DNA of 64,000 bases from an uncultured Bdellovibrionales bacterium (GCA_964351525.1 CAYGOD010000003.1:136121-200120); one strand, 5' to 3'; counted from the stretch's first letter, positions 2,660 through 63,601 are shown. Program-made: numbers and translations. Notes: generated by a model not told the origin, from the letters alone.

Positions 2660-4192
2660 TTATTTAAAAGCCGGACCCGTACAGTTCTTTTTATAGGTCG
2701 GTTTTTTAAGGCGCGTAATCATATTTTTCTTTTTAGAATAATCACACACACCAATCCATTTTTGTTTGCGTATGTTCTTTAAAATACGCCCTGTCGCAAA
2801 TTCTATCGCGTCGCCATTTTTAAGAATGGCTGAACTTGTGTTATCCAACATCGCGCTTTTGTTAAAAACAGTTTTTAACTTTCCAAATTTTGCATAGATA
2901 GGAATAACGTAGCGTGCGCGCATCAAGCTTGTCATTTCTTTTATTTCCGGCCATGTCACATGCCCACGAATATCCAATTTATGTTTGGGATATGGGTAAT
3001 ATTCAATCCCCTCTTTCTCTAGTCTCTTTATAATTTTTTGATAAAATTTAGGACGCACCAACATGACATTCTTCGCCATATAGAGGGCATCGTTCTTTGT
3101 AAATTTAAACCATGGATGACTTTGATAAATAATCTGTCCTAATAACGATGTCTGATTATTTGCAACGCCATCCGTTAAAATAAATGTTTCATTCTCAGGG
3201 AGGTCTTTTACACATGAATCATTATGATATAAAAGCTCAAAAGGCTTATCCGTTTTTGTATTTAACAGCGCTTCAAATGATAATCCATCCCGTTCAAAAT
3301 TATCAATCTTGGTGCGCAATAATTCACTAGCAATAATGATTTTTCTGTCTTGGTTTGCCGCCTCAACTATCATAGATGCAATGAGCTCTAGATACCCTGC
3401 GTAAAAAGCCGCAATGATCCGTTGATCGGCATGTTTGTTAAAAATGTCTTTGATATCTTGGCGCATTTCAACATCATCATAGATAAAATCACTCCCTTGA
3501 TCGCCCTTGGTTGAATCAATCAAGAACCCATCAACACCCCCAGTTTCACCTAAATATTGCAAAAAGTCTAAATCGGTCTTGGGCCCCAATAAAACCGTTT
3601 GGTCGAGTTTCAAATCACCCGTATGGACAATACGTTGTCCTGCCCCCTCAACCAAAAACCCTAAACAATCGGGCGTTGAATGAGACACAGAAAACGGCGT
3701 TATCGTCCAGTCTTTATCGACATTTATTGGTTGTTTAGGGATGGCGGTAATCGTCTCGTAATGCCCATGTTTTCCCACGTCATATCCGTGTGAATCTAAA
3801 TAAGCACGCAGAACATTGAGAGTCATTTTTGGGGCGATAATCTTTGGCACTTTACACCCACGTAAAATTGTATGCGCCAGACCCGTTATATGATCGTCAT
3901 GCAAGTGCGTTAATAAAATTGCTTTGATTTTCGGGTTTTCATGTGATGATAATTTGGGATATAAATCATCCAAGTCAGCCATCAAATAATCAATTTTTTT
4001 GCCATTACTCTTTTTGTCCTTGAAATGCATATTACCAAAATCAATCTGGATCATATTATCAGGAAATGTTTCTAAACCAACATCACCCATGCCTATTAAA
4101 TTGGCATTGCCGCCAAGGGCGCCCCTCTGATCGCTATTATTGCCACCAACGGGCATCATATAAAGCGTTTGTTGTTTTGTTTTTCGTGTCAT
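2660..4192 (-). CDS. Divergent RNase J-like metallo-beta-lactamase/beta-CASP protein
   Basis: MPVGG, IDFG, THLHDDHITG, SHSTPD, HTGDLKLD, DST, RGH motifs; final motif reads PIYAK rather than PxHGE. Confidence 0.8.
   Translation of the reverse strand: MTRKTKQQTLYMMPVGGNNSDQRGALGGNANLIGMGDVGLETFPDNMIQIDFGNMHFKDKKSNGKKIDYLMADLDDLYPKLSSHENPKIKAILLTHLHDDHITGLAHTILRGCKVPKIIAPKMTLNVLRAYLDSHGYDVGKHGHYETITAIPKQPINVDKDWTITPFSVSHSTPDCLGFLVEGAGQRIVHTGDLKLDQTVLLGPKTDLDFLQYLGETGGVDGFLIDSTKGDQGSDFIYDDVEMRQDIKDIFNKHADQRIIAAFYAGYLELIASMIVEAANQDRKIIIASELLRTKIDNFERDGLSFEALLNTKTDKPFELLYHNDSCVKDLPENETFILTDGVANNQTSLLGQIIYQSHPWFKFTKNDALYMAKNVMLVRPKFYQKIIKRLEKEGIEYYPYPKHKLDIRGHVTWPEIKEMTSLMRARYVIPIYAKFGKLKTVFNKSAMLDNTSSAILKNGDAIEFATGRILKNIRKQKWIGVCDYSKKKNMITRLKKPTYKKNCTGPAFK
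2666..2707. terminator. Possible terminator hairpin between convergent uvrD and RNase J-like gene
   Basis: AAAAG-CCGGACC...GGTCGG-TTTTTT; bulged stem and large loop. Confidence 0.3.
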
Positions 4193-4195
4193 TAT

Positions 4196-4387
4196 CTATC
4201 CAAAAAAAGTGACGGCTAGCCATGCAAAAATAAGGGCAATCATCCAATTCAGTAAGCCATATTTAATTTTTAAATCTTTATCATTTTTAATCACATCTGC
4301 GGGGGTGTCAGACAATAAAAAATAAATGATTGTTTGTCCAATAACAAATCCTGCAATTAATCCCAGAACGGCGATTAGATAAATCAT
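4196..4387 (-). CDS. Small membrane protein (63 aa, two hydrophobic segments)
   Basis: Hydrophobic N- and C-terminal helices; tightly packed downstream of rimI. Confidence 0.65.
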   Translation of the reverse strand: MIYLIAVLGLIAGFVIGQTIIYFLLSDTPADVIKNDKDLKIKYGLLNWMIALIFAWLAVTFFG

Positions 4388-4391
4388 GATT

Positions 4392-4919
4392 TCAAGTCCT
4401 TTTTATGATCTTACGCATAACGATGGCATCATCATAGGATGCGTCTTTATCATGTGGTTCATAATATTTTTCTCTTTTATTTATTATCTCAAACTCATTT
4501 TTATTATACAAATCTACGGCCGAAATATTGCGCGATGCGACATCTAAAATAAATACATCTACCTGACTATTATCATGCAACCATTGCTCGATAAAATCTA
4601 ATATTTTTTTACCGTGACCTTGACGTCGTTGGTTTTCATTCACCGCAATGGCCAATAACTCTGCCGTTTCATATACAGTGCTTACCAATGCCCCCGCAAT
4701 AACAACGTCATCATTTATAAGTGTAAAGAAATGATAATGTGTGTTTACACGAAACCTATTGAGGCTTTCCACATCCCAATTTTCGGGCAGCGATGATTGA
4801 AAAAGATCAGAAATCAGCGACACCATCTTCTGGCACCCTGTATCATTATCTGGAAACGTTACTTTACCAATCAATTGAAGGTAACCCCGCGGCTCTTTTA
4901 GCATCGGCGGGACGCACAT
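4392..4919 (-). CDS. rimI: RimI-like GNAT acetyltransferase (true start probably about 4874 or 4826)
   Basis: AELLAIAVNENQRRQGHGKKIL, LDVASRNISAVDLY, REKYY...DAIVM; follows tsaB as is typical. Confidence 0.8.
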   Translation of the reverse strand: MCVPPMLKEPRGYLQLIGKVTFPDNDTGCQKMVSLISDLFQSSLPENWDVESLNRFRVNTHYHFFTLINDDVVIAGALVSTVYETAELLAIAVNENQRRQGHGKKILDFIEQWLHDNSQVDVFILDVASRNISAVDLYNKNEFEIINKREKYYEPHDKDASYDDAIVMRKIIKRT

Positions 4920-5454
4920 AAATCGGACTTAACGTTTCTTCCGTTAAACCAGCATCCGCCATATCAAAACATACCTTAATATCTGAGGCCTCATTGATAC
5001 CAATCACAATTCCCTTGAAACCATTCATCTCTTCCAAAGATAATATTTCTGGCTCATTTAAAGGTCTCATATCACTGTCAAATTTCTGCGTATAAAAATC
5101 ACCACGGCGTGTATTAACACAGGCTAAAATTTGAGTATTGCCAGAGGCCTGAAACGCTAAATTCTTTAACGTTGAGATTCCCATAACAGGAATAGTCAAC
5201 GAGACACCCAAGGCGCGCGCCGTTGATAACCCGACACGAATACCAGTGAAGCTGCCAGGGCCTGCTGTGACGATAATGCGCTCTATGTCCTGTAATGTTT
5301 TATGACCATCTGATAAAACAGCATCAATCATAGGTATAAGAGCATTGGCAAAACCGTGTATCATGTCAACAGATTGGACCACGCAAAGATCATCCCCATT
5401 CATCACGGCGACTTGGCATTTATCAATGGCGGTATCAATTATTAAAGAAAGCAT
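4864..5454 (-). CDS. tsaB: tRNA threonylcarbamoyladenosine biosynthesis protein TsaB
   Basis: LIIDTA, VTAGPGSFTGIRVGLSTARAL, NTRRGDFY, PIYVRP. Confidence 0.93.
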   Translation of the reverse strand: MLSLIIDTAIDKCQVAVMNGDDLCVVQSVDMIHGFANALIPMIDAVLSDGHKTLQDIERIIVTAGPGSFTGIRVGLSTARALGVSLTIPVMGISTLKNLAFQASGNTQILACVNTRRGDFYTQKFDSDMRPLNEPEILSLEEMNGFKGIVIGINEASDIKVCFDMADAGLTEETLSPIYVRPADAKRAAGLPSIDW

Positions 5455-5466
5455 TATTTAGAAATC

Positions 5467-15546: not shown

Positions 15547-16596
15547 TTATTTACTAAACGAAAAAAGGATATCATCGCGTGCTTTAAGCACGTTTGCGGC
15601 ATTAACGGCAGGGGCTTCTTGCATAAAGATATGAAGATGATTCTGTGCCGATAAAAACAATAATGACGATACTGTATCACCACCTTGATGAGCACTGGAA
15701 TCGGGTGAGCACGCAAAATCAGCGCGTACAAAATAATCGTCTCCTAAGCGTTCTACATGACTGACCTCACTAACAAAGACACCTTCACAAAGACGCTTGA
15801 TCGGTATCAGGTAATCTTCAACCATCGGAGATAGCTGTGTTGGCTCTTCCAAACGTGTTTGTAACGATATTTGTTTATAAGCGCCCTTGATGTTCTGATA
15901 GCGATCTTCCCCGTACCAAATAGCATCAACCACCTTATTAGCGCCTCCTATCTCGTCTATATGGCTATAGGAAATCGCCGCTTTTTGTAATTGTTGGGCA
16001 AGAAAACCATGGGGATTATTATCTATCTGTGCTGCTTTTTCGGTTGTCTCAATATCATGGCTTATCGCTGGTACAGCACTTACGAACGCAATGTCATCAA
16101 GCAATGTCTCTCGACATGTATCGAGAGCCTTTAACCAGCGCGTCCAATTATTCCCTAAATCAAAAGAAATATTTTGGCTCAACCCCGCAAGGGATGCATA
16201 ACGATAGTCCGTAAAATTAGGAACGTTAAAGAATGTGGATGGTAGAGGAACAAGCAACAAATTGTCACGAATAGCTTTGGCCTTAATCGCACCTGAATTG
16301 TACTCAGCCATCCTCTCTGCTTGATTAGATGACATGTCTAAACGAACATCATAAAACTCACCTACACCCAAGACAGCGCTATCAAAGCCGATCAAAAAAC
16401 GCCCATCACCAGCCTTATCTCGGGCTATATAGACAGTATCCCCATTATCTTCTGTACGCTCTAAGACGCAATAAGCAATTTTATCAGGTTGATTGGCATC
16501 GGGTATATGATTGATTGACCAGTCATTCGCAAAAGTAGGCGATGCGATCATTGAAACGAAAATAAAAAAAACGGCAAAACAAAAACGATAGAGCAT
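15547..16596 (-). CDS. Exported hypothetical protein (paralogue of 16632-18392)
   Basis: Signal peptide ending PTFA; long ORF; shared Cys pattern with neighbour. Confidence 0.75.
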   Translation of the reverse strand: MLYRFCFAVFFIFVSMIASPTFANDWSINHIPDANQPDKIAYCVLERTEDNGDTVYIARDKAGDGRFLIGFDSAVLGVGEFYDVRLDMSSNQAERMAEYNSGAIKAKAIRDNLLLVPLPSTFFNVPNFTDYRYASLAGLSQNISFDLGNNWTRWLKALDTCRETLLDDIAFVSAVPAISHDIETTEKAAQIDNNPHGFLAQQLQKAAISYSHIDEIGGANKVVDAIWYGEDRYQNIKGAYKQISLQTRLEEPTQLSPMVEDYLIPIKRLCEGVFVSEVSHVERLGDDYFVRADFACSPDSSAHQGGDTVSSLLFLSAQNHLHIFMQEAPAVNAANVLKARDDILFSFSK

Positions 16597-16631
16597 AATA
16601 TGTCACGTATCCTCTTTTGTTAATTCGTCAC

Positions 16632-18392
16632 TTACATACCACCAAACAAGACGGTTGGCAGTGAATGTGCGATTGGTTTTGGTGAAACAACGCGCCCCGC
16701 TTGATTCGCCGTAGAACGCATCTCAGCAAGCGAAGAAAGACTGTTTGCTGGATATGTTTTTGCTTGAACCTCTGGCGTCCTATAAACAGTCGCAACAACT
16801 GGCTGAATCTCTACAGATGGCTTTACAGTGCCCTGAGTAACAGGATTAGCTTGGGTAACAGGACTGGTTGGCAATGCTCTTTGTGTGTTATTAAGAGTCA
16901 GATATTGCACCACCGGGCGTTGAAAAATTGGGTTTTCAATATTTTGTTCCGCAACATCAACATAATCAACGATCTGTTTTGCCTGTGGCTGAACATCATC
17001 TTGTTGATCCAGATCAGCCAAAACTTGTTTAATCGCAGTAATATCTTTCTGCATCATCATTGATTGATCGGCAGACCCTTCAAAAGCAAGAGCACTTAAT
17101 GTGCCTTTGTTTGTAAAGAATAGCCCCGTAAATAAGCTATCTTTATTGATATTACGGCAACGCACATTCATATCAATCATTGATAAACTACCAATCGTGT
17201 CAATTTTTGATATTGAGGGCGCAAAACCAAAATCGCCGCCACAACTATCTCGTTGGCCTTGAATCGTTGCCTTAGCCAAAGATTGCAACGCTTTTTGTAC
17301 TTGTTCTGCCATGAAGTATGTTTGCTCAAAACGTCCAGAAATTGAACGATTGTCAACCCAAGTAGAAATATGACGATCATCATTAGTCATTGTATTAACA
17401 CTATCATGCAAAGGAATAACATCCGTTTTTTGCAATAAACCATTCAAAGCAGCTGGCAGGTTATTGGGGATAACAACATCCTTAATAATCGTTGTTTCTT
17501 GTGTCATTATATGGCGCGTATCTGTCGCTTGTCTGGCGGGCGCATTAACGGCGACATAACCAGATGGCATATCGGGCACAAGTCTATTGCTCGCGTTACC
17601 TGTAACGGCCTTTTCTTGTATTTTCTGGCGCTGTGCTTTTTCAACATAATGATATAAACGCAAGTCATCTTGGGCATTTGGCAAAACAGCGCGTGATACA
17701 ATACCATTGGTTAGGGTGTTGACGCTCTTTGGATTTTCTTTAAGAGCTGTCATTTTCGTAGGCGTCTTATCTGATTTTTCAGTTATCAATGACGTTGTAT
17801 CAGCGTCTATCATTAGATCATTACTGCTGAGTATTTCATTAACACGCATATCACATGATAATAATTTCTTACGAACATCCTTGATATCCGTAATGTTGTA
17901 AATCGATGAAAAATTAGTCTTTTCAACACCTATATTCACATGATCATGGGCCGTTAGATTTTCCCAAAAATAATCATCATTGCCCGCTTGAACAATAATT
18001 GATTGTGCAGTATCCGCACGCCCAATAAAGCGTCCTTGATTACCATTTGGAAATATAAAATTAATCGTTTCGTTAGGAGATATATTAAAGATAGGCGCAT
18101 CACTTTTTATTGCCAATGATGTTTGTCCTGCACCCTTAACGGCTAGAACCAATGTTGTGCCATTTGAGAAACGGGTCGCAGCAACACAGTAATCTTTTTC
18201 GCCCGTTACCGTTGATGCAACTTGTGATGATTGCCATGGTTGTAATGGTACAGCAACGACAATCTGGGGTATAACAGCATTTTTATCTAATAAATTTATA
18301 GGTTGAGCCATTGCGAGCGCCGACCAACCAAGTAGCAAAAAGCTACACAGAAAAGTCGTCATATAAAAAGTCTGATTATGCATTGCGCGCAC
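16632..18392 (-). CDS. Exported hypothetical protein, two domains plus low-complexity linker and tail
   Basis: Signal peptide ending LAMA; W..YC..C N-domain and CGGDF..C C-domain shared with neighbour. Confidence 0.78.
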   Translation of the reverse strand: MRAMHNQTFYMTTFLCSFLLLGWSALAMAQPINLLDKNAVIPQIVVAVPLQPWQSSQVASTVTGEKDYCVAATRFSNGTTLVLAVKGAGQTSLAIKSDAPIFNISPNETINFIFPNGNQGRFIGRADTAQSIIVQAGNDDYFWENLTAHDHVNIGVEKTNFSSIYNITDIKDVRKKLLSCDMRVNEILSSNDLMIDADTTSLITEKSDKTPTKMTALKENPKSVNTLTNGIVSRAVLPNAQDDLRLYHYVEKAQRQKIQEKAVTGNASNRLVPDMPSGYVAVNAPARQATDTRHIMTQETTIIKDVVIPNNLPAALNGLLQKTDVIPLHDSVNTMTNDDRHISTWVDNRSISGRFEQTYFMAEQVQKALQSLAKATIQGQRDSCGGDFGFAPSISKIDTIGSLSMIDMNVRCRNINKDSLFTGLFFTNKGTLSALAFEGSADQSMMMQKDITAIKQVLADLDQQDDVQPQAKQIVDYVDVAEQNIENPIFQRPVVQYLTLNNTQRALPTSPVTQANPVTQGTVKPSVEIQPVVATVYRTPEVQAKTYPANSLSSLAEMRSTANQAGRVVSPKPIAHSLPTVLFGGM

Positions 18393-18498
18393 CTTAAAAT
18401 AACATGTAAGAATCTATTTTTTCATTATGAAACAAAAGATTAAAAAGAATCGCGCACCATGTCAAACATCCCTTTGATATAAGACTTCTTTGCCGTAT

Positions 18499-18526
18499 AA
18501 AAAAAGAGGCCATTAAGCCCCTTTTT
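18499..18526 (-). terminator. Intrinsic terminator of the CbbX-like gene
   Basis: Minus strand GGGGC-TTAATG-GCCTC followed by a T run, about 10 nt after the stop. Confidence 0.55.
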
Positions 18527-18535
18527 ATCAAAAAA

Positions 18536-20260
18536 TTAAACTGCTTTAAGCCTCTTATCGCGTGGTGCTGGCTTTCTAGGCGCTGCAAGATCGGCACCGC
18601 GATCATTTTTGTTAGCAGGCTGCTTGGCCTCACTTGATAAAGGACGACCGAAACCAATTGTGTTTGCTTGTTCTTTTTTATCAATAGTGCTCAGGTCAAC
18701 ATTCATAATATCATCAACCGTAATGGTTAATTTCTTACGTCTAGCCGCTGTCTTAAATTGATGTGTTAGCGTTCCCGCCCTATCTCGCTCGATAAGCTCA
18801 AGATTAACAGTAGCCACACGTTGCGTTTGTGCCTTAATGGCAGAGGCAACAAATTTACGCATCAAGCGACCATTGGAAAAAGTTTTATCTTTGCTGGCAC
18901 AAGCTTTCTCAATCTTATCGCGAATCAATGCTTCAGCCCCTTTGCCAAGGATATAATTATCCGGTAAAAGATAATGGAATACGTCCTCTAGCTCATCTGC
19001 ATCATAATCGTCAAAAACATATATTTCAGACAGCCTATCTTTAAGACCCGGGTCAATCGCTTTAATGGCTTCAGTCATTTCCTCTGGATAACCCGCCAAG
19101 ATAACAACAAATTTATCACGGTTATTTTCCATCGTTGCGATTAATTCTCTGGCGGCCTTCATCCCAAATTGTGATGACTTTTGACTTCCACCGCCATCAT
19201 TAAGCGAATGAAATTCATCCACAAATAGCATGCCGTTTGAATTTAATGCCTCTTCAATCTTGCCGCGCATATATTCGTTACTTTTACCGACATAGCCCTG
19301 CATAACCTCTTCACCATTAACGACAACCATAGGCCCTTTAAGAAAGCCTTCTGCGCGCAAAGCGAGGTGATAGATTTTTGCAAAAACCGTCTTTAATGTT
19401 CCGGGATTTCCTAAAAACGCCATATGTCCAAAGTCTTGATCGACAGAGCCCAACAAACTATGGATGCTATTTTCTCGTCCTGCCGTGCCGTTTAAAATAA
19501 TATCGGCCCTACGATTGCGAATAGTTGCGACAATTGAATCGATAATGTGCATCTTGCCTGACATGGCTGGCATCGCCCGTGTTTCTTCGATCAAAAGCTC
19601 TAATTCTTTTGAAAGATCTTCTTCCTGAGATACTGCCAATACATCACTATCTGTTGGAATAATGTCTTTCATTGCTTCGGGATCACTAATTTTATTGACC
19701 TCTGGCGCATGTTTTTTGCCAGTTCCACCATATTCTATTTGATATAAAGCGCCCGTTAATGGATCAAAGCCTTCAAAGTGCTGGTTAACGAAAAAGTTTT
19801 TTTGGTCTGATTTGAAGTACCAGGCCTTTTCTTTTTCATTCCACTCATAGGGAAAGTTAGGGTTTTTCTTATTGGCTTCAGATATTGGCATAAGGCAATA
19901 TCTATCTTTACCTTTATTATCCAATGCAATGTCAAAAATAAGCCCCGTACGAATGTCCCGCATTTCAATCACACGATCATCAACCATTGGCTCAATAATG
20001 ATTGTGCTATTTTCTATATCTGATAAATCCGCCGGGATTTCTAATGTCATGATTTGCTTGTAAGGATGGCCGATGACCAGTTCTAATTTCGTTCCCAAAA
20101 CGTCTTTAATATCAAAGCCATGACCATTTTTTTTGTCATAGGCGACAATTTCATACAGAACACGATTTGATAAATTATCAGGATCGATTCCCATCTGAAT
20201 TGAAAAAACGCATTTATGTTGTGTACTGTAACCATCGAAAGAAAAGGTTTTATGTGTCAT
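18536..20260 (-). CDS. CbbX/SpoVK/CfxQ-family AAA+ ATPase with unknown N-terminal domain
   Basis: HMAFLGNPGTLKT, QGYVG, MLFVDEFHSL, VVILAGYPEEM, DPGLKDR, SNGR. Confidence 0.85.
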   Translation of the reverse strand: MTHKTFSFDGYSTQHKCVFSIQMGIDPDNLSNRVLYEIVAYDKKNGHGFDIKDVLGTKLELVIGHPYKQIMTLEIPADLSDIENSTIIIEPMVDDRVIEMRDIRTGLIFDIALDNKGKDRYCLMPISEANKKNPNFPYEWNEKEKAWYFKSDQKNFFVNQHFEGFDPLTGALYQIEYGGTGKKHAPEVNKISDPEAMKDIIPTDSDVLAVSQEEDLSKELELLIEETRAMPAMSGKMHIIDSIVATIRNRRADIILNGTAGRENSIHSLLGSVDQDFGHMAFLGNPGTLKTVFAKIYHLALRAEGFLKGPMVVVNGEEVMQGYVGKSNEYMRGKIEEALNSNGMLFVDEFHSLNDGGGSQKSSQFGMKAARELIATMENNRDKFVVILAGYPEEMTEAIKAIDPGLKDRLSEIYVFDDYDADELEDVFHYLLPDNYILGKGAEALIRDKIEKACASKDKTFSNGRLMRKFVASAIKAQTQRVATVNLELIERDRAGTLTHQFKTAARRKKLTITVDDIMNVDLSTIDKKEQANTIGFGRPLSSEAKQPANKNDRGADLAAPRKPAPRDKRLKAV

Positions 20261-23598: not shown

Positions 23599-24406
23599 GA
23601 CGACGTTTTAAGTCGCTAATTTTACCATAGTCATAAATTTTTCCTTCTTCGTTTTTAATGAAGAAGATTTTACCCGTGGATTCTGACTTTTTTTGTAAGT
23701 ATATTTCTTTTTACATGATTCATGTTTTGTTCTCAAAAAATCCATTTGAATACACAAAAAAAATTCTTTAAGTTCAACTTATCAACACAGCAATTAACAA
23801 CACTCCTCTCAACGAGAAAAAGAGACAACTGCTGTATTGATGAATAGGAAGGCTTTTAGACACGCTTTACACGCGAAATATTACAGAAATTAATTGCACC
23901 CAGAACACGGTTCTAATTTTTGTAGAATAATAAATAAAGACCCAAGAATGGATCTAACAAAAGTGTAAAGATTAGCGGATAGAAGATAAGCTGACGCACC
24001 TTAACGTTAGACGTCCCTTATTTTTTAAACGACAATCACGTGACATAGTCCTGGCTGTGAAATGAATGATATGGTTCTTTTATCACTTATTTGCAGCCTT
24101 AAATTAAAGTCAGCTTTTTAAAGACCACGTGCTGTTATTAACGGTTTGAGGTTTTGTCAAAAGAGTATGGTAATGATGAATTGAAGATAAAAGAGAATTG
24201 GCTCATTCATTATTATTTCTTGCTCTGGTAAAAAGAAGGCTTGGTTTTTGAAAGAAACGACATGCGCTATTAAATGCGCCCAAAACAACAAAACACATTG
24301 TTTTGATGCGGGCTCTTTAGTGACTAAATTTTTATATGTCGAACAATCATTAACCTATGATTAAAACACGATTATTTTGTTTATTTTTATAAGAAGAGAG
24401 AAAAAT

Positions 24407-25927
24407 ATGTCTTACGTTGATGAAAACACACCAAACGACAATACATCAAAGAACAATACGTCATCAACAGACTCTCTTAATCCAAATTGGAACGCCGAGT
24501 GGGAGCGCATCAAACAAGCCTTTAAAGTAGAAATCGGTGAAACCGCTTTCCGCAGTTGGATTCGCCCCCTTTCTTTGAAAAACATTGATGGTTCTACGCT
24601 TCAATTAACGACGCCTACACGCTTTATGCGCGACTGGGTTCAAACACATTACAGCGACACGATCATGTCTTTATGGTCACAAGATGTCGCCAAAGTGATG
24701 AGTTTAGAAATCTTGATCGAGAGCAGTGCAAACACACCTGCGCCACAACGCTCTAGCATCCCCCACCGTAGTGGTTCATTGGTTGCAAATCAGTTAGCCG
24801 AAAACAAACAAGCGGGCAAAACATCAAACACATACCAACAAACAGGCTATACACAACCCGCCGCTGATTTATCACAAGAAGCCTTGGATTCATTATGTTC
24901 ACCGCTTGACCCACGCTTTACCTTTGATAAATTCGTCATTGGGAAATCAAACGAATTAGCACACGCTGCCGCACGCCGTGTAACAGAAACAAATACCGTT
25001 TCTTTTAATCCCCTTTATATTTATGGCGGTGTTGGTCTTGGTAAAACACACCTTATGCATGCCATTGCTTGGCGCATCCGTGAGACACAGCCAACACGCA
25101 AAGTCTTATACATGTCTGCTGAAAAATTCATGTATCAATTTATTCGTGCGTTGCGTTTTCGTGATTCCGTGACGTTCAAAGAACAATTCCGTTCAGTTGA
25201 TATCTTGATGATTGATGACATCCAATTCATTAGCGGTAAAGAATCAACACAAGAAGAATTTTTTCACACATTTAATGCCTTGATCGATCAGAACAAACAA
25301 ATCATCATCAGCTCAGACCGCAGTCCAAATGAATTAGAAGGCATTCAAGATCGCCTTAAGTCACGCCTTGGTTGGGGGCTAGTCGCCGATATTCATCCAT
25401 CAAATTATGATTTGCGCCTCAATATCTTAAAAGCAAAGTCCGCACAAATCGGCGCGAACGTACCACAAAAAGTACTTGAGTTTTTAGCACAGAAAATTTC
25501 ATCCAATATCCGTGAACTTGAAGGTGCGCTTAATCGTATTGTCGCCCACGCAGAATTGGTTGGACGCCCGATCACAATCGATTACACACAAGAAGTTTTA
25601 CAAGATCTATTGCGCGCTAATAACCGCCGTATAAGCATTGATGAAATTCAACGCAAAGTGTGTGAGCATTATAATCTACGCATGCCCGACATGCAGTCTG
25701 CTAGGCGTTCTCGTAACATTGCGCGCCCACGCCAAGTGGCTATGTATATGGCCAAACAACTAACGTCACGTTCACTGCCTGAAATTGGCCGTAAATTTGG
25801 CGGCCGTGACCATACAACAGTTATGCATGCCATTCGCAAGATCGAACAGCTTTCTAATGATGATCCGTCTTTTGGTGATGAAGTTGCTTTGGTACGTCGC
25901 TCTATCATGGATGCAGGTCGTCAATAG
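24407..25927 (+). CDS. dnaA: Chromosomal replication initiator DnaA
   Basis: NPLYIYGGVGLGKTHL, DDIQF, RELEGAL, RPRQVAMY, GGRDHTTVMHA; ATG 24407 preferred over 24377 (AGAAGAG upstream). Confidence 0.98.
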   Translation: MSYVDENTPNDNTSKNNTSSTDSLNPNWNAEWERIKQAFKVEIGETAFRSWIRPLSLKNIDGSTLQLTTPTRFMRDWVQTHYSDTIMSLWSQDVAKVMSLEILIESSANTPAPQRSSIPHRSGSLVANQLAENKQAGKTSNTYQQTGYTQPAADLSQEALDSLCSPLDPRFTFDKFVIGKSNELAHAAARRVTETNTVSFNPLYIYGGVGLGKTHLMHAIAWRIRETQPTRKVLYMSAEKFMYQFIRALRFRDSVTFKEQFRSVDILMIDDIQFISGKESTQEEFFHTFNALIDQNKQIIISSDRSPNELEGIQDRLKSRLGWGLVADIHPSNYDLRLNILKAKSAQIGANVPQKVLEFLAQKISSNIRELEGALNRIVAHAELVGRPITIDYTQEVLQDLLRANNRRISIDEIQRKVCEHYNLRMPDMQSARRSRNIARPRQVAMYMAKQLTSRSLPEIGRKFGGRDHTTVMHAIRKIEQLSNDDPSFGDEVALVRRSIMDAGRQ

Positions 25928-26230
25928 CCAAAACGAATCGGGTTCTCATTGCGTTGCGTATAGCCACCTGAACATAGGTTTCAGTACGCTTAATAAGCCG
26001 TTACGTTAAATACTTATCGTTATTTAGGGGATAAACACCCGAAAAGCAGCCCTAAGGGCACTAATCGCTATTTTCTTCTTTTTTTGAAGAGGATATATGC
26101 TAAATTTTTACAATAATAAAAATAACATTATTTTATACATCAACAGTCACGGCGATGCGCCACGGCTTTTATGTTTTAAGATTTTAGAACAGTGCCAAAA
26201 GCGCTTTTAATTAAAAAGGATTAAGCCCTC

Positions 26231-27352
26231 ATGAAATTTTCAATTGATCGTTCTGCCCTTCTTCGTTCCCTAGCCCACGTACAAAGTGCTGTTGAACGCC
26301 GTAACACTATTCCTATTCTTGCCAATGTCCTTCTTAAAGCCGATGGCAATAGCCTATCGTTAAGCACAACAGACATGGATCTTGAGATCAATGAAACGGT
26401 TGCTGCAAATGTAAGCGAAGGCGGTATCACAACCGCACCTGCTGGAACACTTTATGACATCGTGCGTAAATTGCCCGATGAAACATCAATTGATATCGAA
26501 ACATCGGCTGGCGATGCACTTATGACGGTCAAGGCCGGACGCTCTGAGTTTAAACTTGGTTGCTTACCTGCCGCAGACTTCCCACAATTATCGGCTGATG
26601 ATATGGGTATTCAATTCCAACTGCCTGCGGATGAGTTACGCAATTTGATTGATAAAACACGCTTTGCTATCTCTACAGAAGAAACACGCTATTACCTAAA
26701 CGGTATTTATATCCACGCTATTCAAATTGAAGATAAGTGGTTGTTACGCTGTGTTGCGACAGACGGTCACCGTTTGGCACGTTTTGAAACAGCACTACCA
26801 GAAGGCGCACAACAAATGCCTGGCGTAATTATCCCCCGTAAAACAGTTCTTGAACTGCGCAAATTGGTTGATGAAGCCGCTGATAAAATTACGATCCATT
26901 TATCAGAGACAAAGATTCGTTTTCAATTCGATCACATCATTTTAACATCAAAATTAATCGATGGTACCTTCCCTGATTACGAACGCGTTATCCCTGCGAA
27001 CAACGATAAGATCGTTGAGATTAATCCAAAGTCTTTGGCCTCAGCAGTTGATCGTGTATCAACAATTTCAACAGAGAAGACACGGGCGGTTAAGTTAAAT
27101 ATTAACGGTAAGAGCCTAACGCTGTCTGCCAATTCCCCAGACAGTGGCAGCGCGGTCGAAGAGTTAGAAATTAAAAATGACAATGAATATGGCATTGATA
27201 TTGGTTTCAATTCTCGCTACTTGCTTGATATTGCACAACAACTGCAAGGCGATAACATCCGCCTTAGCATGAATGATGGTTCTACAGCGACAATTATCCA
27301 AGACCTAGAAGACGAATCATCACTTTATGTCTTGATGCCAATGCGTGTTTGA
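26231..27352 (+). CDS. dnaN: DNA polymerase III beta clamp
   Basis: VERRNTIPILANV, ETRYYLNG, ATDGHRLA, GTFPDY, YVLMPMRV. Confidence 0.98.
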   Translation: MKFSIDRSALLRSLAHVQSAVERRNTIPILANVLLKADGNSLSLSTTDMDLEINETVAANVSEGGITTAPAGTLYDIVRKLPDETSIDIETSAGDALMTVKAGRSEFKLGCLPAADFPQLSADDMGIQFQLPADELRNLIDKTRFAISTEETRYYLNGIYIHAIQIEDKWLLRCVATDGHRLARFETALPEGAQQMPGVIIPRKTVLELRKLVDEAADKITIHLSETKIRFQFDHIILTSKLIDGTFPDYERVIPANNDKIVEINPKSLASAVDRVSTISTEKTRAVKLNINGKSLTLSANSPDSGSAVEELEIKNDNEYGIDIGFNSRYLLDIAQQLQGDNIRLSMNDGSTATIIQDLEDESSLYVLMPMRV

Positions 27353-27367
27353 TAAATAATCAAACAT

Positions 27368-28573
27368 ATGACGAATCACATTGATTATAAAATTGATACA
27401 AACAGACAGGCCGATCTTTCATTAAAAAAGATCAGCCTGTCTTTTTTTCGTTCTTACCAAACATTACGCCTTGAAAACCCCGCACAATTCACCGTTTTTG
27501 TTGGTGAAAATGGCGCGGGAAAAACAAATATTCTTGAGGCCATTAGCCTCCTAAGTCCTGGGCGTGGATTACGCGGTGCCAAATTAACCGACATACAAAA
27601 TATTCATCATCCCGCACCCTTATGGGCTGCATCATTTGAATTACAAACAGATAGTGGGCTTTGTCGGATTGGCACGTCATTTACCCGTGCGCCAAAAGAT
27701 AATGGCGATCTGTTAGAAAAACGTATTGTCAAAATTGATGGCACCATCACACCGCAAAATCGCCTAAGTGATTACCTATCCGTGATATGGTTAACCCCGC
27801 AAATGGATGGCTTGTTTTTAGATAGTAAATCAGCACGTCGTCGCTTCTTTGATCGCTTTGTACAAAATCTAAATTCTAATCATGCACAACTGCTCACTAG
27901 CTATGAAAACAGCCTGCGCCAACGCTCTCGTATTTTAAAGGACAGCCTAAAAAGCGGGAAGATTGATAATACATGGCTCAGCGCCTTAGAAAAAAACATG
28001 GCGGAAACCGCCGTGGCAATCGCCGCCAATCGTTTGAACCACCAAGATAAGTTGAATGAAGCCTTAAAGCGCCTTGAGCCTGTACGTCAATGTTTCCCGC
28101 TCTTAGAGATCGCCATCACAGGTGACACAGAACATCACCTATCCAACACCAGTGCTATTGAAACTGAAGATTACCTGAGAGATAGCCTATCAAATAGCCG
28201 TGCTATTGATGCCATCACAGGCGGTGCGGCGTGCGGTGCCCATAAGAGTGATCTTGATATTATTCATCTTGATAAATCGATGCCTGCTAATCAATGTTCA
28301 ACCGGTGAACAAAAGGCTATGCTCGTTTCTTTGGTTTTAGGACAAGCGACACTTATTCATGCAGAAAAAAACGTTCCGCCTCTTATTTTGCTGGACGATA
28401 TTGCATCTCACTTTGATTATAAACGTCAGCAAGATTTATTCTCATATCTTAAGTTCATCAACGCACCTTGTTTTATGACGGGCGTACAAAAATCAGCCTT
28501 TAAATCTTTGTATAATGACGCTGATTTTTATCATGTATCACAAGCACAAATTAAGAAAATTGATACGCTCTAA
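27368..28573 (+). CDS. recF: DNA replication/repair protein RecF
   Basis: FRSY, GENGAGKTN, RRRFFDR, STGEQK, LLDDI. Confidence 0.93.
   Translation: MTNHIDYKIDTNRQADLSLKKISLSFFRSYQTLRLENPAQFTVFVGENGAGKTNILEAISLLSPGRGLRGAKLTDIQNIHHPAPLWAASFELQTDSGLCRIGTSFTRAPKDNGDLLEKRIVKIDGTITPQNRLSDYLSVIWLTPQMDGLFLDSKSARRRFFDRFVQNLNSNHAQLLTSYENSLRQRSRILKDSLKSGKIDNTWLSALEKNMAETAVAIAANRLNHQDKLNEALKRLEPVRQCFPLLEIAITGDTEHHLSNTSAIETEDYLRDSLSNSRAIDAITGGAACGAHKSDLDIIHLDKSMPANQCSTGEQKAMLVSLVLGQATLIHAEKNVPPLILLDDIASHFDYKRQQDLFSYLKFINAPCFMTGVQKSAFKSLYNDADFYHVSQAQIKKIDTL
27404..27448 (+). terminator. Terminator-like hairpin inside the 5' end of recF
   Basis: AGACAGGC-C-GATCTTT / AAAGATC-A-GCCTGTCT followed by a T run. 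Confidence 0.55.
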
Positions 28574-28684
28574 ACGTCTTCTTAAAAATCCTTATAAATT
28601 ATTGTAATTAAAGCTTTTTCATTTGGTAAATAATCCTATTTTTATGGGGTTTTCCTTTGGTTTTCAGAGGGGAATTTGTTATAG

Positions 28685-31219
<2,535 letters not shown>

Positions 31220-39880: not shown

Positions 39881-40588
39881 ATGGAACTTACGCCACAACA
39901 GATCACAGACATTATTTTACAAAAGCCCTATCGCATTACAGCGGGTATTTTAGAACAGCGTAATAGGCTGCAAAAATTACGTGACACAAAAACAGCCAAA
40001 AGAAATGTTGGCTTAGTAGAGAGAGCGAAATATACGCGCAAAGGATCCAAAAGATACACGGAATTAGTTTATTCTGACAATGACTTTATGAATGCTGTAC
40101 TCAAGCTACAAACACCCTTTGTCATTCCATACGTGGAACATGGTACCCTAGAAGAACCGCATGAAAGATCCCTCAAAAATGCCTTAGATGAATTGCGTTA
40201 TTTAGGCTACAGCAATGATCAGATCAAAGATATAGGGCATATAACATATGGTTTTTTAGCAGTGAGGACCGACTATGGTGGTTTGAGCTATATCAACCCA
40301 GATAAAGAAGACAGATCATATTTAGGTACATGTGATGCTTTTGCTGGTATTGGTTACTTTTATGGCGCAGAAGGTAGAAAACAGATGGCATATAACAACG
40401 GTGTTTTTAGCCCCGTCGTGGGCGCGCGTGAGTTCAACACAGTTTCTGCATCACCAGAAGCGTTCAATCGTTTTGAAAAAGAATTGAATGATTTTCTTGT
40501 AGGAACAATCCCAGCAAAATACCCGACATTGTTAAAACCAAAAAGAAATAAGTCACGACGTTTAAAAAAGCTAGCACCGAAAAGCTAG
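39881..40588 (+). CDS. Hypothetical protein with basic C-terminal tail
   Basis: 235-aa ORF with own promoter and AGGA RBS; no family recognised. Confidence 0.7.
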   Translation: MELTPQQITDIILQKPYRITAGILEQRNRLQKLRDTKTAKRNVGLVERAKYTRKGSKRYTELVYSDNDFMNAVLKLQTPFVIPYVEHGTLEEPHERSLKNALDELRYLGYSNDQIKDIGHITYGFLAVRTDYGGLSYINPDKEDRSYLGTCDAFAGIGYFYGAEGRKQMAYNNGVFSPVVGAREFNTVSASPEAFNRFEKELNDFLVGTIPAKYPTLLKPKRNKSRRLKKLAPKS

Positions 40589-54862: not shown

Positions 54863-55402
54863 ATGGTATTAAAAACTGAGCCCAAAAACATACGTACAGT
54901 CACATCAAAACCAGAAAAACTGACAAAATCAGGGCACGAAATGAGCCATGAAGCATTTTGCGGGCCTGTTCCTGGTTTAATGGATTACAGACCTAATTTT
55001 AAAAATAAAATCATGACACAGCGTGCTATCGATATTTTAATAGAAGAATATTGCGTCGGTTTTAGAACCGATTGGCATGTTCAAATATTTGATATAGTTC
55101 CATCAACAAATAAAGATGGAGAGCCACAAAAAGCTGTCAATATTTACGTCGACGACATAACAAGTATTATGATTTTGAAATCGCGTTTTGGTATGTCTGG
55201 TTATGATCTTAATGCACGCGCCTTTAATAAAAGAATGACAATGCGCCGTATGCGCATTCAAAATAAATACGACGTCAGAACACAGGAATTATGCGTTAGG
55301 GACATTATTAAAGACTTAAAAAAAGTTACGTCTCTTCGCGATTACAAAGAAGCTAAAAGAACAAAAGAACACTTATCAAAAAACCCCGTATTTAAACCAT
55401 AA
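54863..55402 (+). CDS. Hypothetical basic protein inserted between pheS and pheT
   Basis: 179-aa ORF with GGAG RBS; no family recognised. Confidence 0.7.
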   Translation: MVLKTEPKNIRTVTSKPEKLTKSGHEMSHEAFCGPVPGLMDYRPNFKNKIMTQRAIDILIEEYCVGFRTDWHVQIFDIVPSTNKDGEPQKAVNIYVDDITSIMILKSRFGMSGYDLNARAFNKRMTMRRMRIQNKYDVRTQELCVRDIIKDLKKVTSLRDYKEAKRTKEHLSKNPVFKP

Positions 55403-58181: not shown

Positions 58182-58631
58182 ATGGAGACAAAACAAGGAG
58201 ACGTCATGTTCCACATTCATATTTATTTTCGACAAACACAGATCGAAGAGGCTTTATTATTAAAAGCAAGAATTGCTAAGGAATTTCCCGCACTCGTTTT
58301 GGGGCGTACACATGAGAAGCCAGTAGGCCCCCATCCCGTTGGTAGTTTTGAAATTGATGTTATGACGCAATGCCAATTTGATGCGCTTAGCTTTTTCTTA
58401 AAAAATAAGATTGGTCATTTATCCGCCATGATCCATCCCGTAACAGGCGATGACTTAGAAGATCATCGTGATGAAAATATTTCTTGGATTGGCACACCAT
58501 ACCACATTAATCGTCAGTTTTTTCATGACCTAAAGAAACGCGCGGACAATGACAATAAAGTCGAAAAAACCGATCAAGACGAAGATGCGGGAAAACGTAA
58601 AAGACCAAAACGTGCATACCGCATTATATAA
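58182..58631 (+). CDS. DOPA 4,5-dioxygenase family protein
   Basis: FHIHIYF, VGPHP, MIHPVTGDDLEDH, WIG. Confidence 0.88.
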   Translation: METKQGDVMFHIHIYFRQTQIEEALLLKARIAKEFPALVLGRTHEKPVGPHPVGSFEIDVMTQCQFDALSFFLKNKIGHLSAMIHPVTGDDLEDHRDENISWIGTPYHINRQFFHDLKKRADNDNKVEKTDQDEDAGKRKRPKRAYRII

Positions 58632-58638
58632 TTATTAG

Positions 58639-58682
58639 AAAAGCCCTATAAAATATTGAATATTTGTGGGGCTTTTTTTTTT
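58639..58682 (+). terminator. Intrinsic terminator after the DOPA-dioxygenase gene
   Basis: AAAAGCCC..AAATATT-G-AATATTT..GGGCTTTTTTTT. Confidence 0.7.
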
Positions 58683-58730
58683 GTAATGGTCTTTGATTGT
58701 TTTTATCGTGATCTTATTTAAGATGATCGG

Positions 58731-59381
58731 ATGAATAACGTATTAACATCACTCCTACGCCCTATACCAAAAGATTTTCAGTCTGACTATGCGCGTTTAA
58801 AGCAAAAATTGAATGATATAGAGCCTTCGAAGAATCCTTATCTGATTCACATGTGTGGGATCCCAGGTGCTGGGAAAACAACTATTGCCAAACCACTTTA
58901 TGATATGCACTTAAGGCATGATGGATTTTATTATTTGGACTTCGATCATGTTATGAACACATTGGATAGCTATAATCAACTATCGGTAATTAACCCCCAA
59001 AAAGCTTTTCATCTATATGCGCCCATTGCCGCCAATATTGGTTATCACCTGCTGAAAGATGCTATTGAAAATAATATATCCATTATTTTTGATCATGGCG
59101 CATCACCGCAAAGCCATATCGAGCTATTAAAAAATCTAGAACCTTACAAAACGCGCATAATATATGTCGCATGCGATCTTAGCGTGGCCAAAAAACGTGT
59201 GAAAAATCGTGAACATATCATCAAGCGCTATACATCAGAAGCCATGATAATTGATCGCAATCAAAAAATTAACGCTCAGATTGATCTTTATAAAGACGCT
59301 GTTGACGTCTTTATAAACTGGACGTCTGATCAATCATCCCATGAGGATATAGAAAAGCTATATGAGAGATTAGCGCTCTAA
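58731..59381 (+). CDS. Zeta-toxin-like P-loop kinase
   Basis: HMCGIPGAGKTT, LDFD, IIFDHG, IIYVACDLSVAKKRVKNR. Confidence 0.72.
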   Translation: MNNVLTSLLRPIPKDFQSDYARLKQKLNDIEPSKNPYLIHMCGIPGAGKTTIAKPLYDMHLRHDGFYYLDFDHVMNTLDSYNQLSVINPQKAFHLYAPIAANIGYHLLKDAIENNISIIFDHGASPQSHIELLKNLEPYKTRIIYVACDLSVAKKRVKNREHIIKRYTSEAMIIDRNQKINAQIDLYKDAVDVFINWTSDQSSHEDIEKLYERLAL

Positions 59382-60533: not shown

Positions 60534-60573
60534 AGGCTCTGTTTTTCTTAAGTGATGACAGAGCTATTTTTTT
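60534..60573. terminator. Terminator between convergent rpmG and pleD
   Basis: GCTCTGT / ACAGAGC stem with upstream A run and downstream T run. Confidence 0.55.
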
Positions 60574-60592
60574 GCGCTTTTCGCATTCAAAA

Positions 60593-61996: not shown

Positions 61997-62025
61997 ACTA
62001 TAAAACTCCTTTAAACGCTTCTCGC

Positions 62026-62391: not shown

Positions 62392-62486
62392 GTTTTATGT
62401 CCGTTCGGATGTGGGATAGATATGATCAAATCCATGATTGAATAATAGATCATTACTATACTCTTATCTTTTATAAATTGGAATCA

Positions 62487-62501
62487 TTAAACAGTGATTA
62501 A
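62487..62501. promoter_or_regulatory. CtrA-binding box upstream of divK
   Basis: TTAA-ACAGTGA-TTAA, about 95 bp upstream of the divK start. Confidence 0.6.
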
Positions 62502-62541
62502 TATAGGAGGTTTTAAAAGCTTAATTTATTATGAAAATATA

Positions 62542-62570
62542 TTGACATAATGACCGTCGCGTGCTAAAAC
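62542..62570 (+). promoter_or_regulatory. Putative sigma70 promoter of the orphan pair
   Basis: TTGACA-17 bp-TAAAAC. Confidence 0.5.
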
Positions 62571-62603
62571 AGCCATATATTCTAAAACAGCTAAGGAACA
62601 GTT

Positions 62604-63092
62604 ATGACAGCACTAAGCACAGATTTTACAATCATAGGACTAGACCTAGAAACACAAAAAGATAAAGATGAAGATAGAAAACCTGTCTTGCTTATAGAAA
62701 GACCTGAGCGCGCCATCTTAAGCTATCGGGGACGCGCAAGCTTAGTTCATGTCGGATATTCTAAACCCACATCCAATGCATACTATACCAGAAATAATAT
62801 CATCTTTGATTTTGCCACGATGGAAATATCTCACGCACAATCTGTAAGATATGATAACAGCGCCATGGAAATTTTACAGCAATATGTACCCTATGAAAAT
62901 TTAAGCCCTATCTCAAAAGCCGAATTTCATAAAATCGCCGATGCCGTTATCAAGCATTATAAAGAAGAACATAATATTGCAGACTTCAAAATGCCACCGC
63001 GCTATGAAGAGATACGTAAAGCGTGGGATAAGACACGTGAAAATATCCAAAGCAGCCTAGCGTCAAGATCGCCCGGATTAAACTTAGCATAA
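62604..63092 (+). CDS. Hypothetical protein, tandem paralogue A
   Basis: Shares FDF..ME, EFH..AD.VI..YKE, F.MP..Y...RK.WD with the next gene; AAGGA RBS. Confidence 0.75.
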   Translation: MTALSTDFTIIGLDLETQKDKDEDRKPVLLIERPERAILSYRGRASLVHVGYSKPTSNAYYTRNNIIFDFATMEISHAQSVRYDNSAMEILQQYVPYENLSPISKAEFHKIADAVIKHYKEEHNIADFKMPPRYEEIRKAWDKTRENIQSSLASRSPGLNLA

Positions 63093-63121
63093 GATATTAT
63101 AATTACAGGAACTGTCACCAA

Positions 63122-63601
63122 ATGTCAGAGCAAAAAATAGTATTTAATACCCAAAGCTTAAAGCACGATAATAATTACATCGCGAAAAAGCTTTTAATTG
63201 ATAACGTATCCCGCGTTATTACAACAGAAGTTATAAACAATATAGTTGAGAGCGCTGAAACAACAACGCAAATAAATATTTATGATTTTACATCTATGGA
63301 GCGAACATCAAGTGAAGCTAGCTATATTATATATAGTGGATGGGAGAAAGGTGGCGCTACAATCCACGAAACCGCCCAACAAATAAAATATTATGATGAG
63401 CTATTACCCGATTCACAGTCAGAATTTCATACCGTTGCCGATGAAGTGATTAAATATTACAAAGAAAAATGTGGAATGAATAACTTTCAGATGCCAAAAG
63501 CTTATCAAGCCGTCCGCAAGGAATGGGATGAAGCCCAGACAAAAATAGATACTCAAGCATTAAAGACAAAGCCGAACAGAGGTAGAACTTTACAAGCGTA
63601 A
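63122..63601 (+). CDS. Hypothetical protein, tandem paralogue B
   Basis: Same motifs as paralogue A; AGGA RBS. Confidence 0.75.
   Translation: MSEQKIVFNTQSLKHDNNYIAKKLLIDNVSRVITTEVINNIVESAETTTQINIYDFTSMERTSSEASYIIYSGWEKGGATIHETAQQIKYYDELLPDSQSEFHTVADEVIKYYKEKCGMNNFQMPKAYQAVRKEWDEAQTKIDTQALKTKPNRGRTLQA

Follow-up and report, generated by a model that had tools for sequence, protein, structure and literature searches.

Basic, proline-rich C-terminal tails on lineage-specific proteins of a Micavibrio-like alphaproteobacterium with a type IVB secretion system

We have analysed a 64,000-nucleotide stretch of a bacterial genome (hereafter the window; G000:C3:136121-200120, where G000 is the genome under study) in which six proteins, here called c1 to c6, had been proposed as cargo of a type IVB secretion system on the strength of short C-terminal tails rich in Lys, Arg and Pro. 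The six tails are real, yet tails of this kind occur within the window at the chance rate. What the wider comparison brings out is a habit of the lineage: over their last ~15-20 residues, its fast-evolving proteins contain much Lys, Arg and Pro but little Asp or Glu, and they frequently close with a [KR]-Pro motif. Our preferred explanation, which we hold tentatively and rate at somewhat under an even chance, is that this signature, instead of marking proteins for export, reflects C-termini that are young and under weak constraint, a property unrelated to secretion.

A tail signature on lineage-specific proteins

The genome is 1.95 Mb in length, with a G+C content of 41% and a completeness of 99.99%, and comes from a Micavibrio-like alphaproteobacterium, outside the Legionellales; the DotL-like protein of the window is 52-76% identical to proteins from Micavibrio and from alphaproteobacterial metagenome-assembled genomes. 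The gene set of 1730 genes (89% coding density) was produced by our own codon-score caller of open reading frames (ORFs). The C-terminus of each call is set by the stop codon alone, independently of the start call. Charge statistics were taken over the last 17-20 (or 25) residues of 1715 proteins. Across these, C-terminal windows of the last 17-20 amino acids (aa) have a mean net charge of +0.65 versus -0.32 for internal windows, and 13-15% of the proteins reach a net charge of at least +4.

The proteins were classed by tblastn against the 1.99 Mb genome of a sister genus (G002), giving 1250 shared, 77 weak and 403 orphan proteins; the unpublished genome G067 contributes to none of the conclusions. 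The expectation that orphan tails differ from those of core proteins genome-wide is borne out: the mean net charge of the last 20 aa is +1.79 for orphans versus +0.30 for shared proteins (Mann-Whitney p ~3e-23), and tails of at least +4 are carried by 25% of orphans versus 12% of shared proteins. The charge excess is limited to the last ~20 residues. In 5-aa bins counted from the end, charge falls from 0.66 through 0.58, 0.39 and 0.22 to -0.04 in orphans, and from 0.30 through 0.11 and -0.04 to -0.06 in shared proteins. The bodies of the two sets carry the same charge (-0.38 and -0.39 per 20 aa, respectively) and their N-termini are equal too. The effect is present in each length class and each coding-score class, and the orphan charge distribution is unimodal, having shifted as a whole without any distinct subclass.

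In composition, orphan tails are enriched in Lys (11.1%), Arg (7.2%) and Pro (5.0%) and depleted in Asp (4.8%) and Glu (4.5%), without the excess of Cys, Phe and Tyr that is typical of intergenic or read-through translation. Among soluble orphans the frequency of Asp/Glu is 0.04-0.08 over the last 11 positions, and that of Pro is 0.09 at position -1 and 0.07 at position -2. Acidic tails (net charge of -4 or lower) are correspondingly scarce, at 3.3% in orphans versus 7%. The [KR]-Pro motif, first suggested by reading the tails and defined as the pattern [KR]P.{0,3}$, closes 9.2% of orphans versus 2.6% of shared proteins (odds ratio 3.8, p=2e-7) and 1.3% of internal pseudo-termini. With G002 as a reciprocal hold-out, both features recur: [KR]P endings are found on 7.1% versus 3.4% of proteins (p=0.0017), and tail charge is +1.26 versus +0.22 (p=2e-13). 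Both the codons specifying the Lys/Arg-Pro pair and the DNA downstream of it are diverse, and [KR]P is therefore a feature of the protein. A composite rule that follows the original description (net charge of +3 or more over 17 aa, the presence of Pro, and a hydrophobic residue at -2 to -5) picks out 24.4% of soluble orphans versus 7.6% of soluble shared proteins.

The signature tracks divergence. [KR]P endings rise from 1.9% of conserved tails through 4.8% of variable tails on conserved proteins and 6.2% of proteins below 40% identity to 9.2% of orphans. Among conserved proteins, those in which at least the last 10 residues are unaligned to the G002 orthologue have tails of +4 or more in 22.8% of cases, versus 8.4% when the alignment runs to the end; universal housekeeping proteins, of which an MnmG-like enzyme is an example, behave likewise (20% versus 7.7%). 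These variable tails of conserved proteins are Lys-rich, are not acid-depleted and seldom end in Pro, which indicates that it is the acid-poor, Pro-ended kind that is graded with evolutionary rate. Proteins that are shared with G002 yet not found in a control genome, G061, look like core proteins, and the effect in G000 is thus limited to genus-level orphans.

The signature is also independent of predicted location. The basic-tailed class had been described as one of proteins without signal peptides; such a class exists, and the same signature is carried by orphans with a signal peptide. Using a strict signal-peptide pattern, which is a crude predictor, we find [KR]P endings on 10.4% and 10.9% of signal-peptide orphans, as frequently as on soluble orphans, and on 1.9% and 2.9% of conserved signal-peptide proteins. 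Tail charge is shifted in the signal-peptide orphans too. Proteins bound for the Sec route should have no use for a tag that a coupling protein recognises in the cytoplasm. The signature does not vary among the large contigs, low-GC C7 with its 40% orphans being one of them, or between orphan islands and isolated orphans.

The six tails of the window

Each of the six quoted peptides is present as written, immediately before a stop codon, although the positions first assigned to those of the four plus-strand genes are gene starts and not the positions of the tails. The genes and tails are as follows.

2660-4192 (-): c1, beta-CASP metallo-beta-lactamase nuclease, a divergent relative within the RNase J family, with a basic tail (2663-2713)
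18536-20260 (-): c2, SpoVK/EccA/CbbX-type AAA+ ATPase with a 270-aa N-domain of no known family and a basic, Pro-rich tail (18539-18583)
39881-40588 (+): c3, 235-aa orphan with tail KPKRNKSRRLKKLAPKS (40535-40585), net +9
54863-55402 (+): c4, 179-aa orphan between pheS and pheT with tail ...KNPVFKP, ending in the [KR]P motif (55355-55399)
62604-63092 (+): c6, 162-aa tandem paralogue of c5 with tail SRSPGLNLA (63063-63089)
63122-63601 (+): c5, 159-aa orphan with tail LKTKPNRGRTLQA (63560-63598), net +4 in the last 20 aa

The net charges of these tails are +9 (c3), +6 (c1), +4 (c2 and c5), +3 (c4) and 0 to +2 (c6). Ranked among the 1715 proteins, c3 falls in the top 0.3-0.5%, c1 in the top 4-5%, c2 in the top 6-15%, and c4 and c5 in the top 12-24%; c6 is average. 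Only c3 is a clear outlier. The tail of c6, which had been listed as a weaker example, is not basic, its charge lying near the genome median.

The window is not enriched in such tails. A net charge of at least +4 in the last 20 aa is found for 9 of its 61 genes versus 9.0 expected from the genome rate of 14.8%, and these genes include those for ribosomal protein L35, a small S20-like protein, Fpg and DotM. The composite rule selects 8 window genes versus 6.3 expected (P=0.30), again including L35 and DotM together with a DOPA-dioxygenase-like protein. The near-terminal hydrophobic residue that formed part of the original description is present at -2 to -5 in all six tails but also in 87% of all proteins, and so is uninformative; at position -3 its frequency is 0.37 in soluble orphans versus 0.32 in conserved proteins.

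All six genes had been taken for orphans or degenerate genes. This holds for c3, c4, c5 and c6, which have no tblastn match in G002 and no Pfam or NCBIfam family above cut-off (c5 has a weak, sub-threshold match to Cucumopine_C), and fails for c1 and c2, both of which have G002 orthologues. By its motifs and profile matches c1 is a divergent member of the RNase J family: it matches Lactamase_B_2 (PF12706) at 1e-16, RNase_J_b_CASP (PF22505) below cut-off, and NF047419 (156 bits) and TIGR00649 (136 bits), both below their cut-offs, and has an intact HLHDDH motif (HxHxDH type) at residue 96. Of 121 alphaproteobacterial genomes, 120 encode a member of this family. Homologues from genomes in which DotH is not detected also end in basic tails, with charges of +5 to +7; the c1 tail is therefore a family trait, and the idea that it is a type IV substrate signal falls away. 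It is best read as the kind of basic C-terminus that RNase J-like nucleases ordinarily have.

The ATPase c2 has AAA and AAA_lid_6 domains, matches TIGR02881 and TIGR03922, and has the Walker A sequence GNPGTLKT, with Leu in place of the customary Gly. An EccA/SpoVK-type fold makes c2 look less like cargo than like a chaperone or remodeller. The G002 orthologue (35% identity) is encoded near the G002 dotL gene, and its tail is non-alignable but basic and Pro-containing, ending in ...KKRSRKPISVRITP. Outside the order only the AAA domain of c2 finds matches, and in its class-wide distribution there is no link to DotH. The minus-strand genes at window positions 15547-20260 comprise c2 and, after it, two proteins (586 and 349 aa) that belong to no known family and have hydrophobic N-termini. 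Weak orthologues of all three (21-35% identity) are present in the sister genus, and the three may constitute an undescribed module.

If any one of the six tails is functional, that of the orphan c3 is the likeliest, whichever the function. A 57%-identical homologue retains LKPKRNK(S/T)RRLKKL. In 21 distant homologues an N-terminal LTxxQLxDIxFQxPxRITxGILExR motif and a C-terminal L-x-P-x-x-P-[KR][KR] motif are held in common, the latter including a proline (P220 of c3, within the tail) that is invariant among them. Members of the family were detected in 3 of the 41 genomes from the order, and searches of Pfam, NCBIfam and PDB gave no relative of c3. Its tail is the conserved C-terminal motif of a small, patchily distributed family. 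Single-sequence AlphaFold models reach a predicted local distance difference test score (pLDDT) of 35 for c3 and 38 for c5, the c5 fold being uninformative. For c4, which lies in the operon context rpmI-rplT-pheS-pheT, an 84%-identical homologue has an identical tail and keeps the pheS-X-pheT position in independent assemblies; a net charge of +3 is unremarkable by itself. The paralogues c5 and c6 are 36% identical over 99 aa, and homologue searches returned no relatives for them besides each other. The tails of c2, c4 and c5 are ordinary examples of the genome-wide habit.

Two other groups of genes are of note. Outside the window, at G000:C1:233625-239736, lie six tandem paralogous orphans of ~300-370 aa, five of which have strongly basic tails, for example ...KPIIKKRRMRGRSKPAPRIIG and ...KRPKDMRKKQKKLGLG. 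Within it, at 58182-59381 (+), a DOPA-dioxygenase-family protein with the basic tail ...GKRKRPKRAYRII adjoins a zeta-toxin/AAA_33-type kinase.

The type IVB system and its coupling complex

The original prediction placed the six proteins with a DotL/DotM module in the window, and a type IVB system is indeed present in G000, its genes being scattered over the genome. The relevant features are listed below.

24377-31219: replication-origin block dnaA-dnaN-recF-gyrB, adjoining minus-strand dotL-X-dotM
31315-34227 (-): DotL/IcmO-like type IVB coupling ATPase, 970 aa, assigned by alignment to L. pneumophila DotL
31318-32415 (-): hyper-acidic C-terminal extension of the DotL-like protein, residues 605-970 (366 residues)
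34271-34771 (-): acidic single-pass membrane protein of 166 aa, between dotM and dotL
34785-35993 (-): DotM/IcmP-like coupling-complex protein (PF23127, NF033890)
G000:C2:66000-86000 and C2:483895-485928, far from dotL/dotM: DotI, DotH, TrbI-like DotG, two DUF6750 proteins, a 991-aa ORF without a Pfam match, and DotA

Among the genes elsewhere in the genome, DotA/TraY scores 311 bits, DotH/IcmK 240 bits and DotI/IcmL 208 bits, and the TrbI-like DotG and two DUF6750 proteins accompany them. VirB4 (PF03135) has no match in the genome, and the only match to PF02534 is the DotL-like protein, leaving no VirD4-type system; G000 lacks a VirB/VirD4 (type IVA) receptor machine. IcmS (PF12608) was not found in G000 either, in a search that lacked a positive control, since the family also gave no match in any of the control genomes. 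DotH is detected in 38 of 41 genomes of the order, so that co-occurrence of the tails with dot/icm genes is non-discriminating at this level, and, in a sample of 121 genomes from the class, in 10. DotH/IcmK is found in 9 of 120 other sampled alphaproteobacterial families, mostly in genomes of 1.1-3.3 Mb, and type IVB systems are thus wider in Alphaproteobacteria than the searchable literature suggests. The Micavibrio genome paper states that a type IV system is absent (PMC3189940), and our literature search did not find Micavibrio paired with Dot/Icm terms.

Residues 14-604 of the DotL-like protein align to residues 16-609 of L. pneumophila DotL (6sz9_A; E 1e-136). The DotM-like protein matches PF23127 DotM_C at 5e-50, NF033890 at 186 bits and 6sz9_B at 2e-24. 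Both the DotL ATPase core and the DotM C-terminal domain of a Dot/Icm type IV coupling complex are thus present. Beyond residue 604, however, alignment to Legionella DotL breaks off, so that residues 605-970 have no aligned counterpart in its DotN/IcmSW/LvgA-binding tail. This extension, which is probably disordered, contains 60 Asp and 32 Glu (92 acidic residues) versus 15 Lys/Arg, giving a net charge of -77, and about five repeats of the form GSSW(A/G)DFM..DDEDD. Similarly acidic DotL tails occur only in the closest kin (-56, -86, -46 and -42), those in the rest of the order having charges of -5 to -25. The 166-aa protein encoded between dotM and dotL has a net charge of -10 and no family match in profile searches; BLAST finds it at 25 of 80 related dotL loci.

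In Legionella, R196/R197, R217 and R314/R315 of DotM make contact with acidic signals rich in Glu, and DotM has been proposed to co-evolve with the kind of signal bound (Meir et al.; PMC5802825). At the positions of R196, R197, R217, R314 and R315 the DotM studied here has Asp, Glu, Ser, Arg and Asp, and so lacks four of the five signal-binding arginines. Among 73 relatives the R196 position is Asp in 62 and the R197 position is Glu in 34, the R217 position is mixed (Lys, His or Arg), R314 is Arg in all 73, and the R315 position is Thr, Asn or Ala. Even so, the cytoplasmic domain of DotM as a whole keeps a net positive charge (+15). The tails themselves offer no counterpart to the Legionella-type signal cited in the original prediction: none of the six has a Glu-rich block, the low-pI segment expected some 10-17 residues from the C-terminus, each contains 0-3 acidic residues in its last 25, and orphans as a set are depleted in acidic tails. 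These features of DotL and DotM rule out an E-block mechanism of the Legionella type, and would be compatible with an electrostatic reading of basic tails.

Possible origins of the signature

We infer the origin of the signature from its distribution and from what unselected C-termini in this genome would look like. If the tails are young and weakly constrained, new C-termini would arise through small frame shifts or stop-codon shifts, and in the sequence space of G000 such shifted tails would be basic, acid-poor and Pro-ended, with ~17 codons to the next stop. The general bacterial preference for Lys and Arg at C-termini would contribute, and clades with RF3 would tolerate a terminal proline. 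Off-frame translation of G000 genes gives a net charge of +2.8, 1.4% Asp plus Glu, 5.2% Pro, ~17 codons to the next stop, terminal Pro at 9.5-14.7% and [KR]P endings at up to 5%, values that match the signature in sign, extent and flavour. C-terminal enrichment of Lys and Arg is reported to be ubiquitous in bacteria, whereas a bias towards terminal Pro is reported for particular clades, in connection with RF3 (Weber et al. 2020, PMC7246954). This reading is favoured because the local rate of basic tails equals the genome rate by either count (9 versus 9.0; 8 versus 6.3); because the shift is unimodal, follows divergence, and extends to signal-peptide orphans and every large contig; and because basic variable tails are also found on universal housekeeping proteins. 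It is favoured further by the basic tails of c1 homologues in genomes without DotH and by an order-wide sample in which 147 locus-specific ORFs around dotL in 80 other genomes have no charge shift (a small sample with crude calls), terminal Pro being somewhat raised in the same ORFs.

The comparison with the known proteome-wide bias (PMC7246954) is close but incomplete. As in that bias, the positive charge of conserved G000 proteins is concentrated in the last 5-10 residues, and, in keeping with its RF3-linked component, G000 and G002 have more proteins ending in Pro than G061 has. Unlike it, the G000 signature is in two- to four-fold excess in lineage-specific over conserved proteins, and in orphans it includes a depletion of Asp/Glu over ~11 residues.

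Several observations weigh against a by-product of young C-termini. In the control genome G061, the non-shared proteins have no charge shift (9.9% versus 10.3% at +4 or above). The tail charge of orthologues is correlated (r=0.70), and the tails of c3 and c4 are conserved in homologues, both of which point to function. Soluble orphans reach a net charge of at least +4 two to three times as often as signal-peptide orphans do (p=0.008 and 0.02). The 9-11% of [KR]P endings in orphans exceeds the best off-frame null (5%) by a factor of two and the in-frame internal rate of 1.3% by a factor of seven; Cys, Phe and Tyr are not raised, unlike in raw off-frame or intergenic translation; and tail codon usage is near normal with the alternative frames closed, so that any frameshifts are not recent.

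The bearing of G061 on these points is reduced by its nature. It is a single genome with no DotH, VirB4 or VirD4, of which 800 kb were analysed; its G+C content, at 33.6%, is lower than that of G000, and its non-shared set is defined at class level. Asp/Glu depletion is not seen in it and [KR]P endings stand at ~1%. C-terminal Pro is rare there, at ~2-3% at positions -1/-2, and commoner in G000 and G002, both of which have RF3. A search of the whole G061 genome for RF3 (prfC) gave nothing above cut-off, only EF-G/LepA/TypA-like matches. Given the reported link between RF3 and the Pro bias, G061 is an unfair control for the proline part of the signature.

The foremost alternative, which we regard as possible but unlikely, is that the tails are a type IVB translocation signal: a basic, acid-free, Pro-capped tail read electrostatically by a charge-inverted coupling complex, in which the receptor would be the hyper-acidic, Trp/Phe-motif tail of DotL together with a DotM that lacks the Glu-signal arginine patch. 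The cargo would include c3, c4, c5 and perhaps c2, and would exclude c1 and c6. On a genome scale, it is conceivable, if doubtful, that several dozen lineage-specific proteins with basic, acid-free tails ending in [KR]-Pro (the excess in G000 is ~40-50) would be captured by the DotL tail of net -77 alongside a DotM with Asp/Glu in place of arginines. Much fits this proposal. The system is present and conserved across the order; the signature occupies the site of type IV signals, the last ~20 aa, and is a protein-level motif with diverse codons and downstream DNA; it is enriched on lineage-specific proteins in two genera and absent from one genome without a type IV system; orphans lack the acidic-tail class; and the c3 and c4 tails are conserved. 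DotL tails of -77 here and of -56 and -86 in the closest kin, and the Asp at the R196 position in 62 of 73 DotM relatives with only R314 kept, would agree with the proposed co-evolution of DotM and signal (PMC5802825). Positively charged C-terminal signals are known in other type IV systems (PMC11288057). About a third of Legionella effectors are reported to have transmembrane segments (PMC12981334), by which hydrophobic N-termini would be compatible with cargo.

Set against this are the equal enrichment of [KR]P on signal-peptide orphans, the uniformity of a unimodal shift over contigs that include a probably mobile one, and the failure of the charge part to replicate near dotL in other families of the order. 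The absence from a genome without the system is that of the one control described above, compared at class level, without detected RF3 and with a lower G+C content. Ankyrin-repeat proteins, taken as a marker, number four in G000 and G002 together; one is basic-tailed, and they have no consistent tail.

The known systems align with the tails only in part. Agrobacterium VirE2, VirE3 and VirF, according to Vergunst et al. in 2005, carry positive C-terminal transport signals with an Arg-Pro-Arg element. Like VirB/VirD4 (type IVA) substrates, orphan tails are hydrophilic, ~20 residues long and net positive with few acidic residues, have Arg/Lys beside Pro near the C-terminus, and are found on unrelated, lineage-specific proteins; the net-positive tail that characterises such signals is found on orphans genome-wide and, among the six proteins, on all but c6 (+2). 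Unlike that case, G000 has no VirB4 or VirD4-type system and its sole coupling protein is of the DotL type, its signature extends to signal-peptide orphans, and its tails are candidate signals. Like the Dot/Icm systems of Legionella and Coxiella, G000 has DotL, DotM, DotA, DotH, DotI and DotG, its candidates are dispersed and lineage-specific, and a hydrophobic residue at -3 is common (37% of soluble orphans, though also 32% of conserved proteins). Unlike those systems, in which DotM binds a Glu-rich E-block, a hydrophobic residue lies near -3 and there are effectors that depend on the IcmSW/LvgA adaptor, G000 has tails of opposite charge, depleted in Asp/Glu; its DotM is without R196, R197, R217 and R315, and its DotL tail cannot be aligned to the IcmSW/LvgA-binding tail.

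An improbable further reading is that the tails serve other, non-secretory functions that differ from protein to protein. Such functions might be nucleic acid or acidic membrane binding, as for the RNase J-like c1 and the Lys-rich housekeeping tails, or, in a predator rich in proteases, a Lys-Pro cap that keeps carboxypeptidases off or hides the terminus from degron recognition. The conservation of orthologue tail charge even where the sequences cannot be aligned (r=0.70) is in line with this, as are the basic tails of c1 homologues in many genomes, the Lys-rich tails on housekeeping proteins, the independence of predicted location, and the c3 tail as a conserved family motif; a single common function would leave the close tracking of evolutionary youth unexplained.

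Least probable of all, and very much so, is that AT-richness, gene calling or repeated DNA at gene ends produced both the tails and the difference between orphans and core proteins: the ORF-based gene calls are our own, and AT-richness had been raised as a caveat from the start, but tails in the more AT-rich G061 are less basic, orphans and core proteins do not differ in body or N-terminal charge, no length or coding-score class lacks the effect, a C-terminus is given by its stop codon, neither the codons nor the DNA beyond them are uniform, and the result is replicated in G002 and by the c3 and c4 tails in independent assemblies.

Specific sources of basic tails were also considered and ruled out. 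AT-richness as a cause is excluded by the less basic tails of the 33.6% G+C control; random or intergenic read-through tails by their residue content (Cys 0.7% versus 3.1%, Phe 3.8% versus 7.2%); a repeated DNA element or terminator overlapping the stop codons by the diversity of codons and downstream DNA; recent frameshifts or assembly errors by closed frames, normal codon use and the c3 and c4 tails in independent assemblies; and basicity of the whole protein by body charges of -0.38 in orphans versus -0.39 in shared proteins.

The order possesses a complete-looking Dot/Icm-type machine, conserved in 38 of 41 genomes, and in G000 and G002 the lineage-specific proteins carry a marked tail signature. 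Were the tails a translocation tag, the effectors of a whole uncultured lineage of predators or symbionts could be listed from sequence by rule, type IVB coupling complexes would be able to swap the charge of the signal they read, and this would be the first type IVB system with a VirD4-like positive signal. Should the tails instead be a by-product of young C-termini, as we tentatively prefer, the signature would caution against predicting effectors by tail charge alone, a filter through which ribosomal proteins, Fpg and an RNase J homologue also pass.

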